From sequence record NC_028927.1: a DNA stretch of 64,000 nucleotides. One strand, written 5' to 3'. Made by a program: the position numbers and the translations under genes. The DNA is from Escherichia phage slur02. Below are positions 2,964 through 64,000 of the stretch, in pieces (position 1 is the first letter of the stretch; each line of letters begins with the position of its first letter). Under the pieces are notes generated by a model. The model was not told the origin of the DNA. It made no database searches and saw nothing but the letters and a program-made list of their open reading frames with translations.

Positions 2964-3502
2964 GTTGATCCCAGCTCCTTACTTTCAACGTTTTTAACTA
3001 ATTTGACAGAAACTAATTCGGCATCTTGGGTAATCATTACCGGGCCTTCTTCATACTCTTCAAGATATTCTAGAGCTTTCTTTTTAGCTTCTTCCTTCGT
3101 ATCAGTTTGAGCATAGATATAAAACATGCAACCACCAGTAATACCTACTACTTTCCACTTAATTTCTTTATCAGTTTTAATTTCAAATTTACTGACAGAA
3201 TCATCTTTTTGAACTTCTTCGAAAAAATAATATTCTGACATATAAGTAATTGAAAATAGCGGGCTATCTTTATAGCATTCGCCCATTACATCAACAGCTT
3301 TATACCAGCAGTCATCAATTTCGCGTTTAATGCTAATAACATTCTTCGCGGGATCAATTTTTACTTTAAATGAATTTTCATCAATAAACTGGGCAATTCG
3401 TTTATTAGCCCCACAAGTTTCATTAAAAATATCTTTATATCCAGCTTTAAAGCGATAAACCTTATCTTCTTCAAACCATTCGCTCATTTTCAATTTCCTC
3501 AT
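2957..3502 (-). CDS. hypothetical protein (181 aa)
   Basis: ORF track; early promoter immediately upstream. Confidence 0.55.
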   Translation of the reverse strand: MRKLKMSEWFEEDKVYRFKAGYKDIFNETCGANKRIAQFIDENSFKVKIDPAKNVISIKREIDDCWYKAVDVMGECYKDSPLFSITYMSEYYFFEEVQKDDSVSKFEIKTDKEIKWKVVGITGGCMFYIYAQTDTKEEAKKKALEYLEEYEEGPVMITQDAELVSVKLVKNVESKELGSTC

Positions 3503-3517
3503 TTGTTTGGTAGAGCT

Positions 3518-3548
3518 ATAATATCACAACTCTACCGTAAAGTAAACT
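3518..3548 (-). promoter_or_regulatory. T4-type early promoter (GTTTAC-N18-TATTAT)
   Basis: Minus-strand reading acaGTTTACtttacggtagagttgtgaTATTATag seen directly (approx coords). Confidence 0.5.
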
Positions 3549-3549
3549 G

Positions 3550-3825
3550 TTAAATTGCTTTGAATTCTGATGTCTGTGATTCAAAGCGAATATCGCCTTT
3601 GATGACTAGCTCAGCATCAAGACCAAATACGACAATGATATGCGCAGAACCTGGATACAGCGTAATGGCAATAGAATCCACCTGGTCTGGAAGCAAAGTG
3701 TTCAATACATGAGTCACTTGAGCATGAATTCGAAGCTCGGCTGCGTTATCAAGCTTTTCAAACATATTATTAGCGATAATTTGGCTAAAAACTACTTCTA
3801 CGATTTTAGAATAAGTCGGAAACAT
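3550..3825 (-). CDS. hypothetical protein (91 aa)
   Basis: ORF track; co-oriented. Confidence 0.5.
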   Translation of the reverse strand: MFPTYSKIVEVVFSQIIANNMFEKLDNAAELRIHAQVTHVLNTLLPDQVDSIAITLYPGSAHIIVVFGLDAELVIKGDIRFESQTSEFKAI

Positions 3826-3827
3826 AT

Positions 3828-4020
3828 TTACCTCACATAATTTTCTTCAAGCCAATCAATAACATCCAACGCATTATCAAAAGTTGAACCATCTACTTTT
3901 TCTTCTGTTTCATAATCAAGAACATCTAAGCCTAATCTTCCGTTAACAATAGGCCATAAACAAAATAGATATTTCTTTTCTTTTTCAATTTTATCACAAA
4001 GACGATAAATCTTTTCTAGA

Positions 4021-4028: not shown

Positions 4029-5443
<1,415 letters not shown>

Positions 5444-6875: not shown

Positions 6876-8463
<1,588 letters not shown>

Positions 8464-20010: not shown

Positions 20011-23000
20011 ATGGCCGAGATTAAAAGAAAGTTCAGAGCAGAAGACGGTCTGGACGCAGGTGGTGATAAAATAATCAACGTAGCTTTAGCTGATCGTACC
20101 GTAGGAACTGACGGTGTTAACGTTGATTACTTAATTCAAGAAAACACAGTTCAACAATACGATCCAACTCGTGGATATTTAAAAGATTTTGTAATCATTT
20201 ATGATAACCGCTTTTGGGCTGCTATAAATGATATTCCAAAACCGGCAGGAGCTTTTAATAGCGGACGCTGGAGAGCATTACGTACCGATGCTAACTGGAT
20301 TACGGTTTCATCTGGTTCATATCAATTAAAATCTGGTGAAGCTATTTCAGTTAACACCGCAGCTGGTAATGATATTACATTTACTTTACCATCTACCCCA
20401 ATTGATGGTGATACTATCGTTCTCCAAGATATTGGAGGAAAACCTGGAGTTAACCAAGTTTTAATTGTAGCTCCGGTGCAAAGTATTGTAAACTTTAGAG
20501 GTGAACAGGTACGTTCAGTACTAATGACTCATCCAAAGTCACAGCTAGTTTTAATTTTTAGTAATCGTCTGTGGCAAATGTATGTTGCTGATTATAGCAG
20601 AGAAGCTGTAGTTGTAACACCAGCAAGTCTATATCAGGCGCAATCTAATGATTTTATCGTACGTAGATTTACTTCTGCTGCACCGATAAATATTAAACTT
20701 CCAAGATTTGCTAATCACGGCGATATTATTAATTTCGTCGATTTGGACAAATTAAATCCACTTTATCATACAATTGTTACTACATACGATGAAACTACTT
20801 CAATACAAGAAGATGGAACTCATTCTATTGAAGGCCGTACATCGATTGACGGTTTCTTGATGTTTGATGATAATGAGAAATTGTGGAGATTGTTTGACGG
20901 GGATAGTAAAGCACGTTTACGCATTATAACGACTAATTCTAATATTCGTCCAAACGAAGAAGTTATGGTATTTGGTGCGAATAACGGAACAACTCAAACA
21001 ATTGAGCTTCAGCTTCCAACTAATATTTCTGTTGGTGATACTGTTAAAATTTCCATGAATTACATGAGAAAAGGACAAACAGTTAAAATCAAAGCTGCAG
21101 GTGAAGATAAAATTGCTTCTTCAGTTCAATTGCTGCAATTCCCAAAACGTTCAGAATATCCGCCTGAAGCTGAATGGGTGACTGTTCAAGAATTAGTTTT
21201 TAACGGTGAAACTAATTATGTTCCAGTTTTACAACTTGCTTATATAGAAGATTCTGACGGAAAATACTGGGTTGTACAACAAAACGTTCCAACCGTAGAA
21301 AGAGTTGATTCTTTAAATGATTCTACTAGAGCAAGATTAGGCGTAATTGCTTTAGCTACACAGGCTCAAGCTAACGTCGATTTAGAAAATTCTCCACAAA
21401 AAGAATTAGCAATTACTCCAGAAACATTAGCTAACCGTACTGCTACAGAAACTCGTAGAGGTATCGCAAGAATAGCAACTACTGCTCAAGTGAATCAGAA
21501 CACCACATTCTCTTTTGCTGATGATATTATCATCACTCCTAAAAAGCTGAATGAAAGAACTGCTACAGAAACTCGCAGAGGTGTTGCAGAAATTGCTACT
21601 CAGCAAGAAACAAACGCAGGAACAGATGATACAACCATCATTACTCCTAAAAAGCTTCAAGCTCGTCAAGGTTCTGAATCATTATCTGGTATTGTAACTT
21701 TTGTATCTACTGCAGGTGCTACTCCAGCTTCTAGCCGTGAATTAAATGGTACGAATGTTTATAATAAAAACACTAATAATTTAGTTGTTTCGCCAAAAGC
21801 TTTGGATCAATATAAAGCTACTCCAACGCAACAAGGTGCAGTAATTTTAGCAGTTGAAAGTGAAGTAATTGCTGGACAAAGCCAAGAAGGATGGGCAAAT
21901 GCGGTTGTAACGCCAGAAACGTTACATAAAAAGACATCAACTGATGCAAGAATTGGTTTAATTGAAATTGCTACGCAAAGTGAAGTTAATACAGGAACTG
22001 ATTATACTCGTGCAGTCACTCCTAAAACTTTAAATGACCGTAGAGCAACTGAAAGTTTAAGTGGTATAGCTGAAATTGCTACACAGGTTGAATTCGACGC
22101 AGGCGTCGACGATACTCGTATCTCTACACCATTAAAAATTAAAACCAGATTTAATAGTACTGATCGTACTTCTGTTGTTGCTCTATCTGGATTAGTTGAA
22201 TCAGGAACTCTCTGGGACCATTATACCCTTAATATTCTTGAAGCAAATGAGACACAGCGTGGTACACTTCGTGTAGCTACACAAGTTGAAGCTGCTGCAG
22301 GAACATTAGATAATGTTTTAATAACTCCTAAAAAGCTTTTAGGTACTAAATCTACTGAAGCACAAGAAGGTGTTATTAAAGTTGCAACTCAGTCTGAAAC
22401 TGTGACTGGAACGTCAACAAATACTGCTGTATCTCCAAAAAATTTAAAATGGATTGTGCAGAGTGAACCTACTTGGGCAGCTACTACTGCAATAAGAGGT
22501 TTTGTTAAAACTTCATCTGGTTCAATTACATTCGTTGGTAATGATACAGTCGGTTCTACACAAGATTTAGAACTGTATGAGAAAAATAGCTATGCAGTAT
22601 CACCATATGAATTAAACCGTGTATTAGCAAATTATCTGCCGTTAAAAGCAAAAGCTGTAGATAGTAATTTATTGGATGGTCTAGATTCATCTCAGTTCAT
22701 TCGTAGGGATATTGCACAGACGGTTAATGGTTCACTAACCTTAACCCAACAAACGAATCTGAGTGCCCCTCTTGTATCATCTAGTACTGCTACGTTCGGT
22801 GGATCAGTCACAGCAAATAGTACATTAACTATTTCTAATACTGGTACGTCTTCTTCTCGATTTACATTTGAGAAGGGTCCTGCTTCTGGTAGTAATGCTG
22901 ATTCTGCACTGCATGTTCGTGTATGGGGTAATAAGTACAGCGGCGGTTCTGATGTAACTCGCGCAACGATTATAGAATTCTATGATGCATCCGGCACTCA

Positions 23001-31352: not shown

Positions 31353-31505
31353 TCAATTAGTTGACTTTGTTATAATATCATCAGACGCTTGATTTGTAAA
31401 CTGGTCTGTGTTATTTTCTTCAAAAATTTTTTCTACGAATTCCTTGAACGACTTACGTTCCTGAGCTACATTATGCTCGATTACTTTTTCAAGATTATGA
31501 CTCAT
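31353..31505 (-). CDS. possible small ORF (approx 50 aa) between arn and asiA
   Basis: Hand translation MSHNLEKVIEHNVAQERKSFKEF...; its ATG overlaps the arn stop (ATGA); below the track length cutoff. Confidence 0.3.
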   Translation of the reverse strand: MSHNLEKVIEHNVAQERKSFKEFVEKIFEENNTDQFTNQASDDIITKSTN

Positions 31506-31780
31506 TCGAAATAATCTTCAATTTCATAATCATGGACGTAAATCATTATAGTTTTTAATACATCATCAATACTTTTTCCTGGAGCTGGAATTACGTAGAA
31601 ATATCCTGCTTTTGAGAGGTCTTTATAAGTTCCAATCAAGAAATCATTATTCTCAAGATGTAGTTCTTCAACTAATTCATTAACAATTGAATGGTATAGG
31701 TTTGGTAGAAACTTATATAGCTTTTCTAGAATATCAATTTTGATTGTGTATTGAACCACGGATTGAGAATCAATAATCAT
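31502..31780 (-). CDS. arn: probable Arn (anti-restriction nuclease, McrBC inhibitor), 92 aa
   Basis: 92 aa and adjacent to asiA as in T4; acidic protein; no motif confirmation. Confidence 0.55.
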   Translation of the reverse strand: MIIDSQSVVQYTIKIDILEKLYKFLPNLYHSIVNELVEELHLENNDFLIGTYKDLSKAGYFYVIPAPGKSIDDVLKTIMIYVHDYEIEDYFE

Positions 31781-55816: not shown

Positions 55817-55887
55817 TATTTTTCCTTTCAATTCATGGGTTAGTAGATTAATTATACAATAAATATATAAAGCAATAAGGAGGACAT

Positions 55888-56088
55888 ATGGTACAAAAAT
55901 TAATGGCACTTGTTGATGCCATAAAAGGTAATAAAAAACGTATAGCTTTTACTATTTCTGCTATGGTAGGAATTTTACTCTGGAACTTTATTTTATCACC
56001 TGTTGCAATTGCACATGGTATTAATATTCCAGTAGTTACTCTTGATACATTCGTAGATTTAGCATTTGCTTTAGTTGGGTTAATTTAA
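55888..56088 (+). CDS. small membrane protein candidate (66 aa), plus strand, convergent with gene 61
   Basis: Strong SD AAGGAGG 5 nt before the ATG; two hydrophobic segments; stop codon overlaps the gene 61 stop on the opposite strand. Confidence 0.45.
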   Translation: MVQKLMALVDAIKGNKKRIAFTISAMVGILLWNFILSPVAIAHGINIPVVTLDTFVDLAFALVGLI

Positions 56089-57113
56089 ATCTTAGCATAT
56101 TTAGATAGCCGCATTTTAGCCATCAACCCCTGGGCAATATTATTTTTCATATATTCCATAATTTGTTCAGGGGTTGCACCTTCCTTTCTAATCATATCAT
56201 TAACATCTTTTGATTTCCAGGGAGATTTATCCCAAAACATAACCCTTTCTCCTGCATCAACTAATTTAGTCATTCGCTTAATAGTGTCAGGATGACGAGG
56301 TTCATTATCTAAAACCCACACTCGTCTATCTTTAAATGGAACAACTTCTAGGTCTAATTGACCACCCGTAATAGCTATACCATTTTCAATAAAAAGTGAA
56401 TCTATAGGTCCTTCTAGAACATATACATCACCATCTTTAACTCGTTCGACTCCATAGATTTTTGTTGCTTCAGGATAAGCTTTGATAGTGATATATTTTT
56501 GGGGAGCATCTTTCTTTAATGCACGTCCTTGAAAAGACTCAGCTTTTCCATTAGCATTATAAATTGGAATAACAAGACGAGGCTCAGGTATTTCCTTTTT
56601 ATATGTTCCCGGTGCTATGCTATTAACTAATTTAGGCCATTCAGTTGTAAACCAAAGATATTTCCATTTATCCTTTGGAATACAACGAGCTTTTACATAT
56701 TTTATAATTGGATGGTCTTCCGCCAGTTTATCTAATCTAACACATGACGGAAGAGATTTAATTATTTTCTTCTCAGGTTGTTTAGGAAGTTCTTTAGGTT
56801 TTTCTACTGGACGACTTTTACCTTTTTCTTTTCTTATTTCAAAGATATACTCACGATATAAATCAGGTTCAAACTCCTTTAAATATATTCCGATTGGTGC
56901 ATGATAGTTACAGTTATAACAATGAATATTTCCTTCATTATTATCACCATAATACCATCCACGAGCTTTATTCTGGTCGGTTTTTGAATCTCCACAAACA
57001 GGACATCTAAACCGTAATTTAAAAGTTGAACTATTATTTACTTGTGTGAATTTAGGTAAATGAGCTAATGCACGGTATGCAAACTCATTATCAATCCAAG
57101 GTATTGATGACAT
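56085..57113 (-). CDS. 61: gp61 DNA primase (342 aa)
   Basis: N-terminal zinc ribbon CPVCGDSK ... CYNC; Toprim region; 342 aa as T4 gp61. Confidence 0.9.
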   Translation of the reverse strand: MSSIPWIDNEFAYRALAHLPKFTQVNNSSTFKLRFRCPVCGDSKTDQNKARGWYYGDNNEGNIHCYNCNYHAPIGIYLKEFEPDLYREYIFEIRKEKGKSRPVEKPKELPKQPEKKIIKSLPSCVRLDKLAEDHPIIKYVKARCIPKDKWKYLWFTTEWPKLVNSIAPGTYKKEIPEPRLVIPIYNANGKAESFQGRALKKDAPQKYITIKAYPEATKIYGVERVKDGDVYVLEGPIDSLFIENGIAITGGQLDLEVVPFKDRRVWVLDNEPRHPDTIKRMTKLVDAGERVMFWDKSPWKSKDVNDMIRKEGATPEQIMEYMKNNIAQGLMAKMRLSKYAKI

Positions 57114-57115
57114 TT

Positions 57116-57278
57116 TTACTCTTCTTTTTCTTTAGATTCCTCTTTTTTCTTTTTAGGAATCTGTTCAGGGCCTTTATTTACTACAGCGCCTGACGTTGTT
57201 CCAATAGAGATATTTTCAGGATTACCACCTGAATCTCCAGCGACCATATCTTCTTTAATAAATTCTTTATATGTTTTC
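57116..57278 (-). CDS. possible small protein (approx 54 aa), 61.1-like
   Basis: Hand translation MKTYKEFIKEDMVAGDSGGNPENISIG...; stop lies 2 nt before the gene 61 ATG; below track cutoff. Confidence 0.35.
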
Positions 57279-57328
57279 ATATTAACCTCTATTCATAAAA
57301 GCATTAAAAATTTGGTCATCAATAGATG
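57279..57328. repeat. direct repeat copy 1 (approx 46 bp)
   Basis: attaacctctattcataaaagcattaaaaatttggtcatcaatagat, near-identical to the copy at approx 57639. Confidence 0.8.
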
Positions 57329-57638
57329 GAATAGCAACCTTTTCGGCATCATTTAGCAAATCATTAATTTCATCAGATAGCATAACACATGTGCCTTTAT
57401 TTCCTGTAATTGTTACTGCACAATTACGAACGTTTTCTTTATCAAATTTTAGGTTAATATTTTCGTAGTGAAAATCCTTTAATGCCGAATATATCTTTAA
57501 AATGAAATTGTCTTTTACTACAATAAACCCAACTTCACTATTAAAACGTGGTTCATGGAAACTGTAATAAACCTTTTCATCTATGAAATCGTATGAAATT
57601 TTTTCCATTTTTAAATATGAAAATTCAGAACTATACAT
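57282..57638 (-). CDS. hypothetical protein (118 aa), paralog of the C-terminal half of the next ORF
   Basis: Shares motif YxSF...VG-F/I-x-VKDN-x-I and an identical C-terminal tail SIDDQIFNAFMNR with ORF 57640..58266. Confidence 0.5.
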   Translation of the reverse strand: MYSSEFSYLKMEKISYDFIDEKVYYSFHEPRFNSEVGFIVVKDNFILKIYSALKDFHYENINLKFDKENVRNCAVTITGNKGTCVMLSDEINDLLNDAEKVAIPSIDDQIFNAFMNRG

Positions 57639-57686
57639 ATTAATCTCTATTCATAAAAGCATTAAAAATTTGGTCATCAATAGAAA
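57639..57686. repeat. direct repeat copy 2 (approx 46 bp)
   Basis: attaatctctattcataaaagcattaaaaatttggtcatcaatagaa; one mismatch to copy 1. Confidence 0.8.
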
Positions 57687-58266
57687 CATTTACTTTAGAC
57701 TGTTTTTCAGATGGCAATTCATATCCACATATTACAATTTTATGATCAATATCAAAATACACAGAAGCAATATGATTAATGATATTTTCAGTGAAGTCTA
57801 AATCGACATCAATATCTTTTTGACCAAATCCCAGAGGATAAATAATGCGAGTAATTCGATTATCTTTAACAAAGATTCCACCGACATACTCTGTACTGCG
57901 TTTAAAGTCTACACGCCGACGAAATGAAAAATATTCAGGCTCTTTATGAGCTCGGCTCATAGGACACAACGAATAACTAGAATAAGAGATGTCAAATCCT
58001 ACGCCTTCGATATGAGCCAAAGTGTCATGATTAAACCAATTATAATCGTACGCCAAATCCATTAGATTATAATATGTAAAAGGCACCGGATTAACATCAT
58101 TAGTCACAAGCATGTAATTAGCAACTGCTATAATTTCATTGTTTTTAACGAATACAAACCGTGATTGATGCGAATGACCTGGACCCGCGTTTTCACGATT
58201 AATGATATAACACTGGGCACCTTTATATTTGTATGTATCTTTGCACTTGTGCATTTGATAGAGCAT
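57640..58266 (-). CDS. hypothetical protein (208 aa) with internally repeated FVKxN domain, 61.2-like position
   Basis: Internal repeat RFVFVKNNEIIAVANY / GGIFVKDNRITRIIY; C-terminus duplicated in the adjacent ORF. Confidence 0.55.
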   Translation of the reverse strand: MLYQMHKCKDTYKYKGAQCYIINRENAGPGHSHQSRFVFVKNNEIIAVANYMLVTNDVNPVPFTYYNLMDLAYDYNWFNHDTLAHIEGVGFDISYSSYSLCPMSRAHKEPEYFSFRRRVDFKRSTEYVGGIFVKDNRITRIIYPLGFGQKDIDVDLDFTENIINHIASVYFDIDHKIVICGYELPSEKQSKVNVSIDDQIFNAFMNRD

Positions 58267-58559
58267 TATTCACCTACCACTTCAGCGATGATATTTTTGT
58301 TATTAAAGTTTTTATCGCAATACAGAACATAATTATACTGCATTACACCACCAGACTTAAGTTGTTTTTGCACTTCAGCTTTCATTTCAGGGCGATCGCG
58401 CTCAACGATATTCATAATATCTGCTTCAATTTGAGTTTCAACTTCAGTCTGATCCGCAGTCATAGACCATTCGCACAAATCTTTATCATAACCTGCCATA
58501 GCAGGCTGAGCAGCACAAGAAGCTAAAGCAAAAATTGTGGCAAAGATAAATTTTTTCAT
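58266..58559 (-). CDS. sp: Spackle (Sp) periplasmic superinfection-exclusion protein, 97 aa
   Basis: Signal peptide MKKFIFATIFALASCAAQPAMA; 97 aa as T4 Sp; position between 61 and 41. Confidence 0.8.
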   Translation of the reverse strand: MKKFIFATIFALASCAAQPAMAGYDKDLCEWSMTADQTEVETQIEADIMNIVERDRPEMKAEVQKQLKSGGVMQYNYVLYCDKNFNNKNIIAEVVGE

Positions 58560-58587
58560 GATAATCTCCTCAGTAATTTATGTTTAT

Positions 58588-58617
58588 ATAGTATCTCAAT
58601 TTCCAACAAAAGTAAAC
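58588..58617 (-). promoter_or_regulatory. T4-type early promoter (GTTTAC-N18-TACTAT)
   Basis: Minus-strand acTGTTTACttttgttggaaattgagaTACTATataaac upstream of sp. Confidence 0.5.
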
Positions 58618-58619
58618 AG

Positions 58620-58919
58620 TTATTTTAAAACTTCTGCGTAATCACATGTTACAAACTGTTTCTCTAGCTTAACGATCTTACGAAAATACCTTTTACACTG
58701 ACGAATCTGTCGCTTCGTAGGACGTACAGCAAACTTAATAAATTCCACTCGACCAAATGGAGGACTTTCTTCTGCTGGAATATCTAACACCAATTCCCAC
58801 GTATCTGCAATAAGTGCTTTGAATTGCGTATTTTTCCTGACGTTATACGGAGTAGGTTTAAATAAAACAATATGCATATTATCCTCGGCAATCCACTTCA
58901 CATACTTTCTTGTCATCAA
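58620..58919 (-). CDS. hypothetical protein (99 aa), 61.4-like
   Basis: ORF track. Confidence 0.5.
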   Translation of the reverse strand: MMTRKYVKWIAEDNMHIVLFKPTPYNVRKNTQFKALIADTWELVLDIPAEESPPFGRVEFIKFAVRPTKRQIRQCKRYFRKIVKLEKQFVTCDYAEVLK

Positions 58920-59061
58920 TGAAAGCTTTAACTAATGCTTTATTAACTTCAGCATACTGAGTAGTAACCCATTGAACGTCATCTTTCATCATTGTGGTTT
59001 CTTTAGTAAACATGCTTTCATTCTTAAACCACCCCATAAAAACTACCTTTACCAATTCCAT
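58879..59061 (-). CDS. dmd: Dmd (discriminator of mRNA degradation; antitoxin against RnlA/LsoA), 60 aa
   Basis: 60 aa; sequence recalled as T4 Dmd (MELVKVVFMGWFKNESMFTKE...); next to gene 41. Confidence 0.8.
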   Translation of the reverse strand: MELVKVVFMGWFKNESMFTKETTMMKDDVQWVTTQYAEVNKALVKAFIDDKKVCEVDCRG

Positions 59062-59080
59062 AACAATCTCCTCATTTAAC

Positions 59081-59110
59081 CAACAAGACTACTATACCAT
59101 AGTCTCGTCA
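59081..59110 (-). promoter_or_regulatory. T4-type early promoter (GTTTAC-N18-TATAGT)
   Basis: Minus-strand ttaGTTTACaagctgacgagactatggTATAGTagtc upstream of dmd. Confidence 0.5.
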
Positions 59111-59119
59111 GCTTGTAAA

Positions 59120-60547
59120 CTAAAATTTTAATTCATTCGCCAAAGCATCTAACTGAGCTCGAGTGGATTCATTTCTTTGATAGCGATTCTGCTCAGCCTG
59201 AATCTGTTGTGAACCTGCTACTTCACTCACTTCAGTTGGAGTAGAATCTTGTTCAATTTCTACCCATTTCTGATTTCCCTTTTGAACACCCATCAAAAAC
59301 TTATTCCACTTATTCTTATCGCCATATCGTGATTTGATTTGCTTAATGAGTTGTTGTTCAGCAGCTGCTAGCTCCTCAGTTTCAATGACCGCAAGCATAA
59401 AATCGGCTGTTGCTGGAAGACCAGCAGATTCTGCAATATCGCTCATGTTAACATCAGAAGAATCCCAAGCCTGTTTGCCGACCTGTGCTGCAGTCCAAAG
59501 AACAGTTTCGGTTTCAACAGCCAGAGCACGCAATTCCTCTGCAATAGCTTTAACAGTTGTGTAACTATTTTCTGAATAAACTCTAATGCGGCAAGATTTA
59601 CAAATACCTAGATAGTCGACAATAATGATTGTTGGAACAAAATTCTTTTTGAGCTTCAATTCATTCAAGAGAGACCTGAATGTATTAGCATCTGCTCCAC
59701 CAGTAGGATACTGTTTAACGATTAAACGACCAAGAGTAGATTTCTCACGCCATTTTTCCATTTTTCCTTTATACTCAGCGTAAGAAATATGCCCATCATC
59801 AATGTCATCAAGAGAAACATCAAGCATATTAGCATCAATACGTTTCGCACAGACTTCTTCAGCCATTTCCATGGAAATGTAAAGAACGTTATGACCAAGC
59901 TGCAAATAATCTGCTGCCAATGAACACAATCCTAATGACTTACCAACGTTAACGCCAGCCATTAAAACGTTCAGTGTTCCAGTCTCAGCTCCGCCTTTAG
60001 TAATTTTGTTTAGAATTCTGAGTTTAAATGGAACCTTACGAGCTTTATTCATATAAGATAGCCAACGCGCTTCATAGTCATCCATCCAATCATGACCAAC
60101 GTAGCTATCAAATGAAATTGATAATGCTTGGCGCATGATGTCAGGAATAGCACCAACATCCGGCATTTTCTTATTTCGTTTTTCCGGAGGAAGCTCAGCA
60201 TTAGTTTGAATTTCGATTATTTTAGACGTAGCATTAAACATCGCCCTTTGCTGAACATATTTTTCTGTTTCTTTTATTAACCAACTGTGGTCTTCCGGAG
60301 AATCAGCTAGTTTTGAAATAAGTGTTTTTACACCAGAATATTCTGTTTCAGTAAATGAACTATTTTCTAATGCAACATTTAACGCATTAATAGATGGAAC
60401 GCTATGATACTCATTAACATGAGATTTAATTAATTTGAATGTATTTTTAGCTGGACCACTTTCAAAATATTCTGAATCCATATATGGCCAAACTTTTGAA
60501 AAATAAGCTTGATCAAATATGAGATGAGAAAGAATAATTTCTACCAC
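59120..60547 (-). CDS. 41: gp41 replicative DNA helicase (DnaB-like), 475 aa
   Basis: Walker A GVNVGKS; 475 aa as T4 gp41. Confidence 0.95.
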   Translation of the reverse strand: MVEIILSHLIFDQAYFSKVWPYMDSEYFESGPAKNTFKLIKSHVNEYHSVPSINALNVALENSSFTETEYSGVKTLISKLADSPEDHSWLIKETEKYVQQRAMFNATSKIIEIQTNAELPPEKRNKKMPDVGAIPDIMRQALSISFDSYVGHDWMDDYEARWLSYMNKARKVPFKLRILNKITKGGAETGTLNVLMAGVNVGKSLGLCSLAADYLQLGHNVLYISMEMAEEVCAKRIDANMLDVSLDDIDDGHISYAEYKGKMEKWREKSTLGRLIVKQYPTGGADANTFRSLLNELKLKKNFVPTIIIVDYLGICKSCRIRVYSENSYTTVKAIAEELRALAVETETVLWTAAQVGKQAWDSSDVNMSDIAESAGLPATADFMLAVIETEELAAAEQQLIKQIKSRYGDKNKWNKFLMGVQKGNQKWVEIEQDSTPTEVSEVAGSQQIQAEQNRYQRNESTRAQLDALANELKF

Positions 60548-60556
60548 ACTTACTCC

Positions 60557-60919
60557 TTAAAAGAATTTAAATTTTTTCTTTGACCTTTTATTAAATGCAT
60601 CTTGCAGTTGCATTGTAATACATTTTTCTACATGAGGAGCTAACTCAGCTTTTCTTTCTTGGTCAAGAACAGCAAAGTCCATTACAACCTTTCCATCAAC
60701 CCAATCCAGTTTTGTTACATACACTATATGTGTAGAACCGTCTTCTAGTTTAATGACAATCTCCTGGATAACATTTTCCATGGCAGATTTAATTATCTTA
60801 AGAGATTCATTAAAAAGACGTTCTTTTCTTTCTTCTTCCCCCTCCGAAGAGGGGGATTCATCGATAATTTCTAGATCTAAATCTAAATCATCTTTATTCA
60901 TTAAATTCTTCCATATCAC
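60557..60919 (-). CDS. 40: gp40 head vertex assembly chaperone (120 aa)
   Basis: Size and position between uvsX and 41. Confidence 0.7.
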   Translation of the reverse strand: MIWKNLMNKDDLDLDLEIIDESPSSEGEEERKERLFNESLKIIKSAMENVIQEIVIKLEDGSTHIVYVTKLDWVDGKVVMDFAVLDQERKAELAPHVEKCITMQLQDAFNKRSKKKFKFF

Positions 60920-62075
60920 TTAACTGTTCGAGGTCAGTTTCTAAATCAGCAGCTGATTTACTTTTACTTTCTGGAGATTTAAATTTTTCAACCTTTGAGT
61001 TAATCAATTCATCAACTTCAGCTTCAACAATTTCATTACTATCAATAGCACCTAACTGATAAGCACGTTTAATAGCATCTCGGAATGGTTGATGCTTAAA
61101 TAAAGGACCCCAGAATGTAGTGCAGTTGGTATCTTTTGCACGCCAAGATTTTTCTTCGCGAATCATCTCGCCGGTTTCTTCATCAAGAAATTCGCGAGCA
61201 TACCAGCCATTTTTTGGTTTTACTACAAATCCTAATTCTAGAGCCATATCTAACAATCCAGAATAAGGATCGATACCACCGTCAAATTTAACATCAATAA
61301 AGAATTTACTTTTTTCTTTAACGGTACGAGATTTTTCTACATTTAGAACAAATTGATACCCCTGAAGATCAGAACCATCTTTAATCTGGCGTTTACCGAT
61401 AATGAATACGGTATCAGCCGAATACATTACGCCTGTACCACCTGTCATCACGGTTTTACTAAACATTTCAATTGTTTCAATTGTATGGTTAACCGCAACA
61501 CATGGAATATTTTTAATGCTAAAATAAGGAGTAACAATACGGAATAATGACTTCAGTGATTTAGCACGAGTCATATCTGCCACAGATTTTTCATTCAAGG
61601 CATCTTCCGTTTCTTTCTTAGAAGCCATATTACCGATTGAGTCGATGAATACAATAACCTTTTCACCACGCTCAATAGCTTCAAGCTGATTCACCATGTC
61701 AATTTTCAGTTGTTCAACTGACTGGATTGGTGTATGAATTACTCGTTCCGGGTCAACTCCCATGGATCGCAAATAAGCTGGAGTAATACCAAATTCGCTA
61801 TCATAGAATAGACAAACCGCGTCAGGATATTTGTTCAAATATGCCGCAACCATAGTCAAAGACATATTTGATTTAAAGTGTTTAGAAGGCCCTGCGAAAA
61901 TAGTTAAACCAGACTGCATACCGCCATCAATCGCACCAGAAATAGCGATATTAAGCATTGGGATTTTTGTACGGATTACATCCTTTTCATTAAAGAATTT
62001 AGATGTAGTCAGTTCAGCAGTCATTTTAGAAGTGGAAGCTTTAATCAAACGGGATTTTAAATCTGCAATAGACAT
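60894..62075 (-). CDS. uvsX: UvsX recombinase (RecA-like), 393 aa
   Basis: Walker A GPSKHFKS; RecA fold motifs; acidic C-terminus. Confidence 0.95.
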   Translation of the reverse strand: MSIADLKSRLIKASTSKMTAELTTSKFFNEKDVIRTKIPMLNIAISGAIDGGMQSGLTIFAGPSKHFKSNMSLTMVAAYLNKYPDAVCLFYDSEFGITPAYLRSMGVDPERVIHTPIQSVEQLKIDMVNQLEAIERGEKVIVFIDSIGNMASKKETEDALNEKSVADMTRAKSLKSLFRIVTPYFSIKNIPCVAVNHTIETIEMFSKTVMTGGTGVMYSADTVFIIGKRQIKDGSDLQGYQFVLNVEKSRTVKEKSKFFIDVKFDGGIDPYSGLLDMALELGFVVKPKNGWYAREFLDEETGEMIREEKSWRAKDTNCTTFWGPLFKHQPFRDAIKRAYQLGAIDSNEIVEAEVDELINSKVEKFKSPESKSKSAADLETDLEQLSDMEEFNE

Positions 62076-62152
62076 TCATTTTTTCCATAGGCATCATTAT
62101 ATTTTCCTCACTGGTTAAAGATAGAGTAATTATAACACAATAAATTTAGGCA

Positions 62153-63001
62153 TTAATCAACTGCTATTGGATGAATAGCATTAAACTTATGAAATGCTTC
62201 TGATTTTTCTTTACGCGAAACACACATGCGAAGAACCTTTAGTGGTTCATCTTCTTCACCCAACGATTTTCGTTTTTCAATATTCGATGTTTTCCAACGA
62301 GCTTGCTCTGGAAACTCTCTATTGATTTGCTCAAGCGCTCTATTATGTTTAGAATTACTGCGAATTGAACTACATCCGCCAGGAGCTTGTGCTTTTCCAG
62401 ATACAACCAGATATTTGAACAAGGCCAAATGCGGATAACCTTGATTAATTAAATTGAGAAATGCATACATATCTTCGCATAAATCAATTTTTCCATACCC
62501 AATTTGTTCTGTCGTAAGTTTTCCGAGGTCATACCATGTATTCGTGAATCCATATGAATTTTCACGATAATTACCCCAAGATGAAGTAATTTTAAAAATA
62601 GGTAGACGAGCATGGCCATGATAATACCCGCAATCCATAGCATCCTCAACATATTGAATCAATTCATAGAACTGTTCACGAGTCAATTGATTAATTTTAT
62701 CTACACAACGACGATCATCTCTTTTTCGCATTGAACTCATACGAATAGTAGTATCATCGTCAATCATCCAAATTCGTTGACCTGCATACATATCAGTAAT
62801 TGCTTTACGAGTTCCAGCAATTCCATTTACATCATCAGGAATAGTTATAATTTTAGCTCTAGACCCATAGGCATCATAATAAGCTTTTTCTTCGTGTTCA
62901 CGTACTACAATATGTGGTTCATAATCAGTCGGAAACATATCAAGGGCAGAAACTGCCCCTACACGTTGATAGCTTGGAATTACGAATTGAATCATTTCCA
63001 C
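62153..63001 (-). CDS. glycosyltransferase, candidate beta-glucosyl-HMC-alpha-glucosyltransferase of T2/T6 type (282 aa)
   Basis: Occupies the bgt slot between uvsX and 42 but is 282 aa, not the 351 aa of T4 beta-gt; acidic DDD motif (IWMIDDDTTI) typical of nucleotide-sugar transferases. Confidence 0.55.
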   Translation of the reverse strand: MEMIQFVIPSYQRVGAVSALDMFPTDYEPHIVVREHEEKAYYDAYGSRAKIITIPDDVNGIAGTRKAITDMYAGQRIWMIDDDTTIRMSSMRKRDDRRCVDKINQLTREQFYELIQYVEDAMDCGYYHGHARLPIFKITSSWGNYRENSYGFTNTWYDLGKLTTEQIGYGKIDLCEDMYAFLNLINQGYPHLALFKYLVVSGKAQAPGGCSSIRSNSKHNRALEQINREFPEQARWKTSNIEKRKSLGEEDEPLKVLRMCVSRKEKSEAFHKFNAIHPIAVD

Positions 63002-63732
63002 TCACCGTTATAATCTTTTTTCACAATATGAGTTTCGCCAGTATTCCACCAATGATCAACCAAGTAAAAATGACGAGAATATACATGAAGACTTCCAACA
63101 TTCCATATAATAGAACCTGCTTTATACTGACGAGTTGAATCGCCTGCATTCAAATCAGATACTAATTTATCTAATACGTATTTTTGCCATGCATAATCAT
63201 TACGGAATCCGAAGACCACGTCATTTGAGCGCATGCTTACTACTGCATTGACTTTCTTATCACGAATCAGGTATTGTACTGTATTAGTACACATGAAATC
63301 TGACATGCCATCTTTATTGTAGTCAAATTGCATGGATGGACGAGTATAAATCATGATACCACGTCGAGAATCAGGGTTTTGACCAAGTTCAGCTAAACAC
63401 ATATCATACTGGGCATAGTTATCTTCTGACCAAATAGCCCAACCATAATTTGAGTTAATTTCACCTTTAGAAGATGCTACCTGCTGCCAAATCTTTGGTG
63501 TTTCACCTGGAATATCTTTAACAAACAAGCTTTTAGATTTATACCATTCAAGTTCACGCTGAATGTATTCATCATTAAGAGCGCCAAAAATAAACGGTTC
63601 ATCTGCTACAAATGATGCGCCAATAATTTCAATAGTTTTAACACCAGTTTTATCAACTACGAAATCTTTTTCTTTTAATGCAATCCCCAAATGAAGACGG
63701 ATTTCTTCAACTGTCATAGAGTCATTAATCAT
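62992..63732 (-). CDS. 42: gp42 dCMP hydroxymethylase (246 aa)
   Basis: 246 aa as T4 gp42; thymidylate-synthase-like fold. Confidence 0.9.
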   Translation of the reverse strand: MINDSMTVEEIRLHLGIALKEKDFVVDKTGVKTIEIIGASFVADEPFIFGALNDEYIQRELEWYKSKSLFVKDIPGETPKIWQQVASSKGEINSNYGWAIWSEDNYAQYDMCLAELGQNPDSRRGIMIYTRPSMQFDYNKDGMSDFMCTNTVQYLIRDKKVNAVVSMRSNDVVFGFRNDYAWQKYVLDKLVSDLNAGDSTRQYKAGSIIWNVGSLHVYSRHFYLVDHWWNTGETHIVKKDYNGEWK

Positions 63733-63739
63733 TTAAACC

Positions 63740-63889
63740 TCAATTGATACATTCATATTTAACTTGTAACAGTAATAAGCTCCAACCTAAAATAATAGTT
63801 GGAATCATAAGAGGAACCGTTACACTATAGTATATACTTATTATAACCATCAAGATTAAAAGCAACACTGTTATAATTTTGCTTTTCAT
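63740..63889 (-). CDS. possible small membrane protein (approx 49 aa) upstream of gene 42
   Basis: Hand translation MKSKIITVLLLILMVIISIYYSVTVPLMIP...; below track cutoff; imm-region position. Confidence 0.3.
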   Translation of the reverse strand: MKSKIITVLLLILMVIISIYYSVTVPLMIPTIILGWSLLLLQVKYECIN

Positions 63890-64000
63890 TCCTTCTCTCT
63901 GATGATAATTACCTGATTTAGTTGTGCAGACTTTTTAGTTTCACCCGCAATTGACCAAATAAATGTAATAAACCAACCAATAATTGACCAGTTAAACAGT

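Follow-up and report, generated by a model that had tools for sequence, protein, structure and literature searches.

The gene between uvsX and gene 42 of Escherichia phage slur02 is very probably a T2/T6-type beta-glucosyl-HMC-alpha-glucosyltransferase

The window analyzed here is a 64,000-nucleotide stretch of the genome of Escherichia phage slur02 (NC_028927.1), in which the slot between uvsX and gene 42 holds a minus-strand gene that we identify below, with high confidence, as ba-gt (Table 1). The co-directional gene 42 lies directly upstream of it, while uvsX and then genes 40 and 41 follow downstream. The segment from 56000 to 64000 is 100.0% identical to the Escherichia phages slur04, slur11 and slur13 (Tequatrovirus), and many T2/T6-like phages match it at about 98%; over this 8-kb region the identity to TB37 and Some is 97.8-97.9%. 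The ba-gt product is labeled 'hypothetical protein' in the original slur04 submission and beta-glucosyl-HMC-alpha-glucosyltransferase in its RefSeq copy. The mapping offsets at the two ends of the slur04 record NC_042130 differ by 127 nt (an implied genome length of 167,171 versus 167,298 in the record), and it is probable that about 127 bp are repeated at the record ends or that the window is a differently assembled copy.

Table 1. Features of the ba-gt locus and its pathway partner in the window
Feature	Coordinates	Strand	Basis
ba-gt (ggt), probable beta-glucosyl-HMC-alpha-glucosyltransferase, TAGT family, 280 aa + stop	62153..62995	-	ORF, T2 identity, PHROG 842, PF20691
Gene 42, dCMP hydroxymethylase, 246 aa	62992..63732	-	ORF; annotation in relatives
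ATGA overlap of the likely ba-gt start and the gene 42 stop (TGA)	62992..62995	-	sequence read
uvsX recombinase; downstream edge of the slot, outside the pathway	60894..62075	-	ORF, slur04 annotation
R11 codon CGT, N-terminal IPSYQR motif	62963..62965	-	family-invariant; His in T2 only
D79-D80-D81 codons GAC GAT GAT, putative DxD metal/UDP-sugar-binding motif of a GT-A enzyme	62753..62761	-	invariant; fold
E174-D175 codons ('CEDMY'), candidate catalytic base of an inverting reaction	62471..62476	-	conservation
Gene 56, dCTPase/dUTPase, keeps cytosine out of phage DNA	55298..55816	-	slur04 annotation mapped; ORF present

In T4, the interval between uvsX and gene 42 accommodates a 351-aa beta-glucosyltransferase (b-gt), as the original prediction held, and also segA, a homing endonuclease gene that it had left out. 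segA (4571-5236 in T4 locus coordinates, between uvsX and b-gt) is missing here, where ba-gt is followed by a 77-nt spacer (62076..62152) and then uvsX; nor is a T4-type b-gt present in the uvsX-gene 42 slot. A promoter and terminator scan of 61900-64000 returned 14 matches against 10.0 +/- 3.6 in shuffled sequence, which is no excess. Close to the beginning of ba-gt, a perfect G+C-rich hairpin, GGGGCAG-UUU-CUGCCCU, occurs at 62941..62961 on the minus strand, covering codons 12-18 (34-54 nt into the CDS); folding lengthens it to about 15 base pairs, and the predicted fold of the 101-nt start region gives a z-score of -2.2. This 'terminator-like' element is conserved in four relatives (T2, T6, EL and RB14), with slight changes in Some and TB37; it is probably no terminator because it lies inside the ba-gt coding sequence, and it may have an influence on translation or mRNA stability.

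The minus-strand ORF at 62153..63001 was originally predicted to encode 282 aa; the ORF is real, and that length is what a reading from the GTG at 63001 gives in the ORF listing, but the protein is likely to be 280 aa long. Two codons 3' of the GTG is an ATG (62995) that opens an 843-nt CDS and is the start annotated in the relatives, namely the RefSeq version of slur04 (YP_009625265.1, with the same coordinates), T2, Some, TB37, EL, EH2, Bas44, RB14, teqskov and 303Ecol101PP. The motif GGTGAG is found a few bases 5' of this ATG. The same 4-nt ATGA overlap with gene 42 is annotated in T2, slur04, Some, TB37 and EL, and suggests translational coupling of the two genes. We hence rejected the GTG as a start, since the annotated relatives that were checked use the ATG with its overlap—the sole exception is the T6 record MH550421, whose annotation begins at Met20 because of an amber codon at position 10. 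Comparison of the ba-gt genes of the window and TB37 reveals 21 nucleotide differences and just one amino-acid difference, and therefore strong purifying selection. A homolog is encoded in 687 phage records, and on its sequence the ORF clearly reads as a genuine gene and not as a chance ORF.

Sequence comparison, the check suggested along with the original prediction, recovered near-identity to the T2/T6 enzymes and no similarity to T4 beta-gt. The protein is identical to the T2 beta-glucosyl-HMC-alpha-glucosyltransferase at 277 of 280 residues and to the T6 ORF at 275 of 280 (five differences). It matches PHROG 842, 'beta-glucosyl-HMC-alpha-glucosyltransferase', at 2.4e-89 and the Pfam TAGT family (PF20691, TET-associated glycosyltransferase) with 38.2 bits against a gathering cut-off of 27.5, with residues 5-209 aligned to positions 2-205 of the 205-position profile. 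T4 beta-gt has no detectable similarity to it (BLASTP E = 3.4), in keeping with the claim that the two are unlike; the T4 b-gt family PF09198 has no Pfam match in the protein, and NCBIfam has no model for it. A search of a large protein database returned only 11 clusters of homologs, reaching down to 28% identity (about 28-32% for the most distant member); it is therefore a narrow family at the sequence level, which yields a shallow alignment for structure prediction. Residues R11, D79, D80, D81 and D175 are among those invariant in the aligned homologs. The full best explanation, and a very probable one, is that the gene is ba-gt (ggt), whose product carries out the second step of DNA glucosylation in T2/T6-type T-even phages; this was the reading first proposed, and the alpha-gt of the slur04 record (see below) also speaks for it.

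The DDD-type motif recognized at the outset is indeed specified by GAC GAT GAT at residues 79-81. An AlphaFold2 model built on the alignment of the 11 clusters has a pLDDT of 70 and a pTM of 0.72; its N-terminal half is confident, while residues 126-150 and 202-211 are below a pLDDT of 50. The moderate pLDDT is probably due to the shallow alignment. In the model the DDD motif follows a predicted beta-strand (residues 74-77), as is expected of the DxD in GT-A enzymes, and the fold matches are likewise GT-A glycosyltransferases, with no GT-B enzyme in the top 60; the protein thus fits the GT-A plan of one Rossmann-like domain that binds the nucleotide sugar. An AF3-based study likewise placed the T6 TAGT among the GT-A enzymes, near GT2, in contrast to T4 alpha-GT and beta-GT, which are GT-B (Nucleic Acids Res 2026, gkag531). 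The likeness to GT2-type GT-A glycosyltransferases such as TarP (6H1J), BcsA and WrtF (9OMH) comes with 6-17% identity, and a PDB sequence search matched no chain; the enzyme considered here also differs from these in its predicted DNA-linked substrate. In the homolog alignment D175 is invariant and E174 is conserved in at least 90% of sequences, and comparison with the ED/TED motif known from GT2 enzymes makes this pair the candidate catalytic base.

From this, together with the neighboring genes, a pathway can be proposed. Gene 42, whose product forms hm-dCMP, and gene 56 would cause the phage DNA to be built with hydroxymethylcytosine (hmC), and alpha-gt would place an alpha-linked glucose on roughly three quarters of it. 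With UDP-glucose as the likely donor, ba-gt would then attach a second glucose to the first by a beta-1,6 linkage, in an inverting reaction that yields gentiobiosyl-hmC. On general knowledge of GT-A enzymes, the DDD motif presumably holds a divalent metal and the diphosphate; the N-terminal IPSYQR motif could contact the nucleotide, and fold and conservation point to E174/D175 as the likely base. T-even ba-gt is described as transferring a beta-linked second glucose onto alpha-glucosyl-hmC to form gentiobiosyl-hmC (PMC11078745; bioRxiv 2026.02.25.707755).

As the acceptor would be alpha-glucosyl-hmC, the phage needs both the hmC pathway and an alpha-gt. The latter gene is outside the window, about 12 kb past its end, and was examined in the identical public slur04 record only, where it is intact (20893..22095, 400 aa) and 91% identical to T6 alpha-gt. 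Because slur04 has alpha-gt, gene 42, gene 56 and ba-gt, the gentiobiosyl-hmC pathway appears complete, and because a T4-type beta-gt is lacking, beta-glucosyl-hmC is not expected. An arn homolog of 92 aa (31502..31780, minus strand) adjoins asiA, and its slur04 annotation is that of a McrBC restriction inhibitor; it would be a second layer of protection for the approximately one third of hmC left unglucosylated in T2/T6-type phages. The stretch between gene 56 and gene 61 (55817..56084) has no dam methyltransferase gene and holds just one small ORF, 55888..56088 on the plus strand (dam.1 in T6), and T6 has the same dam-less arrangement. In the Durham study, a Dam-like gene sets the EL/BGP/Geo group, with lower gentiobiosylation, apart from the TB37 group (PMC13390438).

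Among known systems, ba-gt of T2 and T6 is the same gene, with the same slot between 42 and uvsX, the same length of 280 aa, the DDD motif and a partner alpha-gt. The TAGT enzymes of TB37, EH2 and Some from the Durham collection lie in the same neighborhood, and for those phages the chemistry is known, with gentiobiosyl-hmC detected by LC-MS (PMC13390438). With T4 beta-glucosyltransferase (PF09198, PDB 1JG7) the protein shares the genomic interval, the UDP-glucose donor and a beta linkage on phage DNA, but its sequence is unrelated, its modeled fold is GT-A rather than GT-B, and it is predicted to act on alpha-glucosyl-hmC, not on bare hmC. The TAGT (PF20691) enzymes of other phages have in common with it the full-profile match and the IPSYxR, DDD and ED motifs; their hmC arises via a TET oxidase, whereas here hmC would come from the gene 42 route and the acceptor would be the sugar that it already bears. 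[quoted passage not shown] The gene strikes one as unlike T4 because it is the pairing in T4 that is the exception, and the arrangement is in reality the common state (PMC13216743). T4-like coliphages usually carry a T2/T6-type ba-gt, which makes the finding right but unremarkable: gene, product and consequences are already known as textbook T-even biology, and the gene is named in the slur04 RefSeq record.

At the level of individual residues, the protein has R11, I101 and P251 where T2 has H, V and S, and Y40, D55, I101 and R106 distinguish it from the T6 records. With respect to the TB37/EH2/RB14 consensus, T2 ba-gt (PV648363, locus coordinates 3007-3849) is distinguished only by R11H and P251S, and the window retains both consensus residues, P251 being encoded at 62243..62245. 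In the alignment, R11 does not vary even at 32% identity, and P251 is shared by 90% of the sequences. In a search with 32-mers that had the variant base inside every 28-mer word, both T2-specific codons were confined to 8 T2/SV76 records among 50,697 phage records; the Arg-11 version was found in the same context in 120 records, with other homologs carrying flanking polymorphisms that left them unscored. In GT-A enzymes, motifs of the IPSYQR kind contact the nucleotide, which would make R11H a candidate for a functional effect. It is conceivable, though we would put it at somewhat below even chances, that the contrast between T2 (~5% gentiobiosyl) and T6-like DNA (~70%) is caused by the T2-unique substitutions, chiefly R11H, with the window representing the wild-type consensus ba-gt. 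In that case T2 would represent a natural hypomorph, whereas a phage with this ba-gt would di-glucosylate its DNA fully.

Different ba-gt lesions are present in the two independent T6 genomes that are public. In MH550421 (locus coordinates 7138-7980) codon 10 is changed from CAG to TAG (Q10amber), and in AP018814/NC_054907 (locus coordinates 61-900) one GAT is lost from a T6-specific GAT GAT GAT run, turning DDD into DD. Both Q10 and the GAC GAT GAT codons are intact in the window. The 279-aa protein of AP018814/NC_054907, YP_010067197.1, was the TAGT query for PSI-BLAST in a 2026 study in Nucleic Acids Res. These lesions may reflect laboratory stocks that have drifted, slippage within the repeat or errors in sequencing.

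The extent of di-glucosylation is not readable from sequence, and our prediction rests on LC-MS of relatives. T2 DNA has ~70% alpha-glucosyl and ~5% gentiobiosyl forms, and T6 DNA ~3% and ~72%, respectively (bioRxiv 2026.02.25.707755; PMC13390438); in T6 without ba-gt, ~75% alpha-glucosyl-hmC remains (PMC11078745; bioRxiv 2026.02.25.707755). In TB37, EH2, Some and others, LC-MS shows about one third 5hmdC and two thirds alpha-gentiobiosyl-mdC with background alpha-glucosyl, and in EL, BGP and Geo a ratio of ~1:2:2, with ~40% gentiobiosyl in EL; the beta-glucosyl form was detected in none of TB37, EH2, Some, EL, BGP and Geo (PMC13390438). The protein considered here is that of TB37/EH2/RB14 except for V101I, and the enzymes of TB37, EH2 and Some are 1-3 residues off. 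As it corresponds to the consensus with one conservative change and is free of the T2 substitutions, we predict that the DNA of this phage is probably T6/TB37-like, assuming that the enzyme is ba-gt. Most likely, gentiobiosyl-hmC would then make up about two thirds and bare hmC about one third, with little alpha-glucosyl-hmC, and the composition would not be T2-like. The proposal that hypermodification differs from that of T4 accords with LC-MS of the phages one residue away (TB37/EH2), which have gentiobiosyl-hmC and no beta-glucosyl-hmC (PMC13390438).

The main rival to the T6/TB37-like pattern is an enzyme as weakly active as that of T2, which would leave mostly mono-alpha-glucosyl-hmC with a few percent gentiobiosyl-hmC and confer a T2-like sensitivity, for example to degradation by Brig1 in vitro. 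The protein is, after all, 99% identical to that of T2, a phage that carries the gene and yet has so little gentiobiosyl-hmC (bioRxiv 2026.02.25.707755; PMC13390438), and I101 is common to the window and EL, one of the phages with an intermediate composition (PMC13390438). The EL enzyme has 7 differences from the TB37/EH2/RB14 consensus and 6 from the window protein; EL reaches only ~40% gentiobiosyl and T2 ~5%, so small differences in sequence or expression matter. However, the window has neither R11H, at an invariant residue, nor P251S, and lacks six of the seven residues that separate EL from the consensus, while the TB37 and EH2 enzymes, from which it departs by V101I alone, go with DNA that is about two-thirds gentiobiosylated (PMC13390438). 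We consequently consider low activity unlikely and retain the T6/TB37-like pattern.

A divergent functional equivalent of T4 beta-gt, putting a single beta-glucose straight onto bare hmC, would account for the shared genomic slot and for the several records that label the gene 'putative beta-glucosyltransferase', and the TAGT family does include enzymes thought to glycosylate hmC directly. Against this, there is no sequence similarity to T4 b-gt, the model matches GT-A rather than GT-B enzymes, and LC-MS of TB37, EH2, Some and EL DNA detected no beta-glucosyl-hmC (PMC13390438). Moreover, T2 agt-null mutants lose glucosylation despite carrying ba-gt (bioRxiv 2025.10.21.683753), and ba-gt is therefore not known to act on bare hmC. 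Identity with the T4-type beta-gt itself was rejected on the BLASTP result and the GT-A fold matches, and even a functional equivalent appears extremely improbable. We assign a similarly negligible chance to a shifted donor or acceptor specificity, whereby V101I or the genomic context would direct another sugar or linkage and thus a modification other than gentiobiosyl-hmC. Nothing specific favors this beyond the use of other acceptors by TAGT enzymes of other phages, whereas V101I is conservative and also present in EL, whose DNA has gentiobiosyl-hmC (PMC13390438), and every invariant residue is intact.

A di-glucosylating ba-gt thus remains the preferred reading, and the altered sensitivity to restriction that was anticipated for it has documented counterparts in T6. 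T6 gentiobiosyl-hmC DNA resists the alpha-glucosyl-hmC glycosylase Brig1 in vitro (PMC11078745), and the deglucosylating BapA is unable to release glucose from it (bioRxiv 2026.02.25.707755). GmrSD-type enzymes still act on such DNA. By analogy, the DNA of this phage is expected to be resistant to Brig1 in vitro and to BapA, and to remain a target of GmrSD/BrxU-type enzymes. The finding has predictive value in that a phage with alpha-gt and ba-gt should carry gentiobiosyl-hmC and no beta-glucosyl-hmC. It bears on sensitivity to readers or removers of single glucoses, such as Brig1 and BapA, versus enzymes that tolerate any glucosylation, such as GmrSD/BrxU, and on how such DNA behaves in sequencing and restriction assays.
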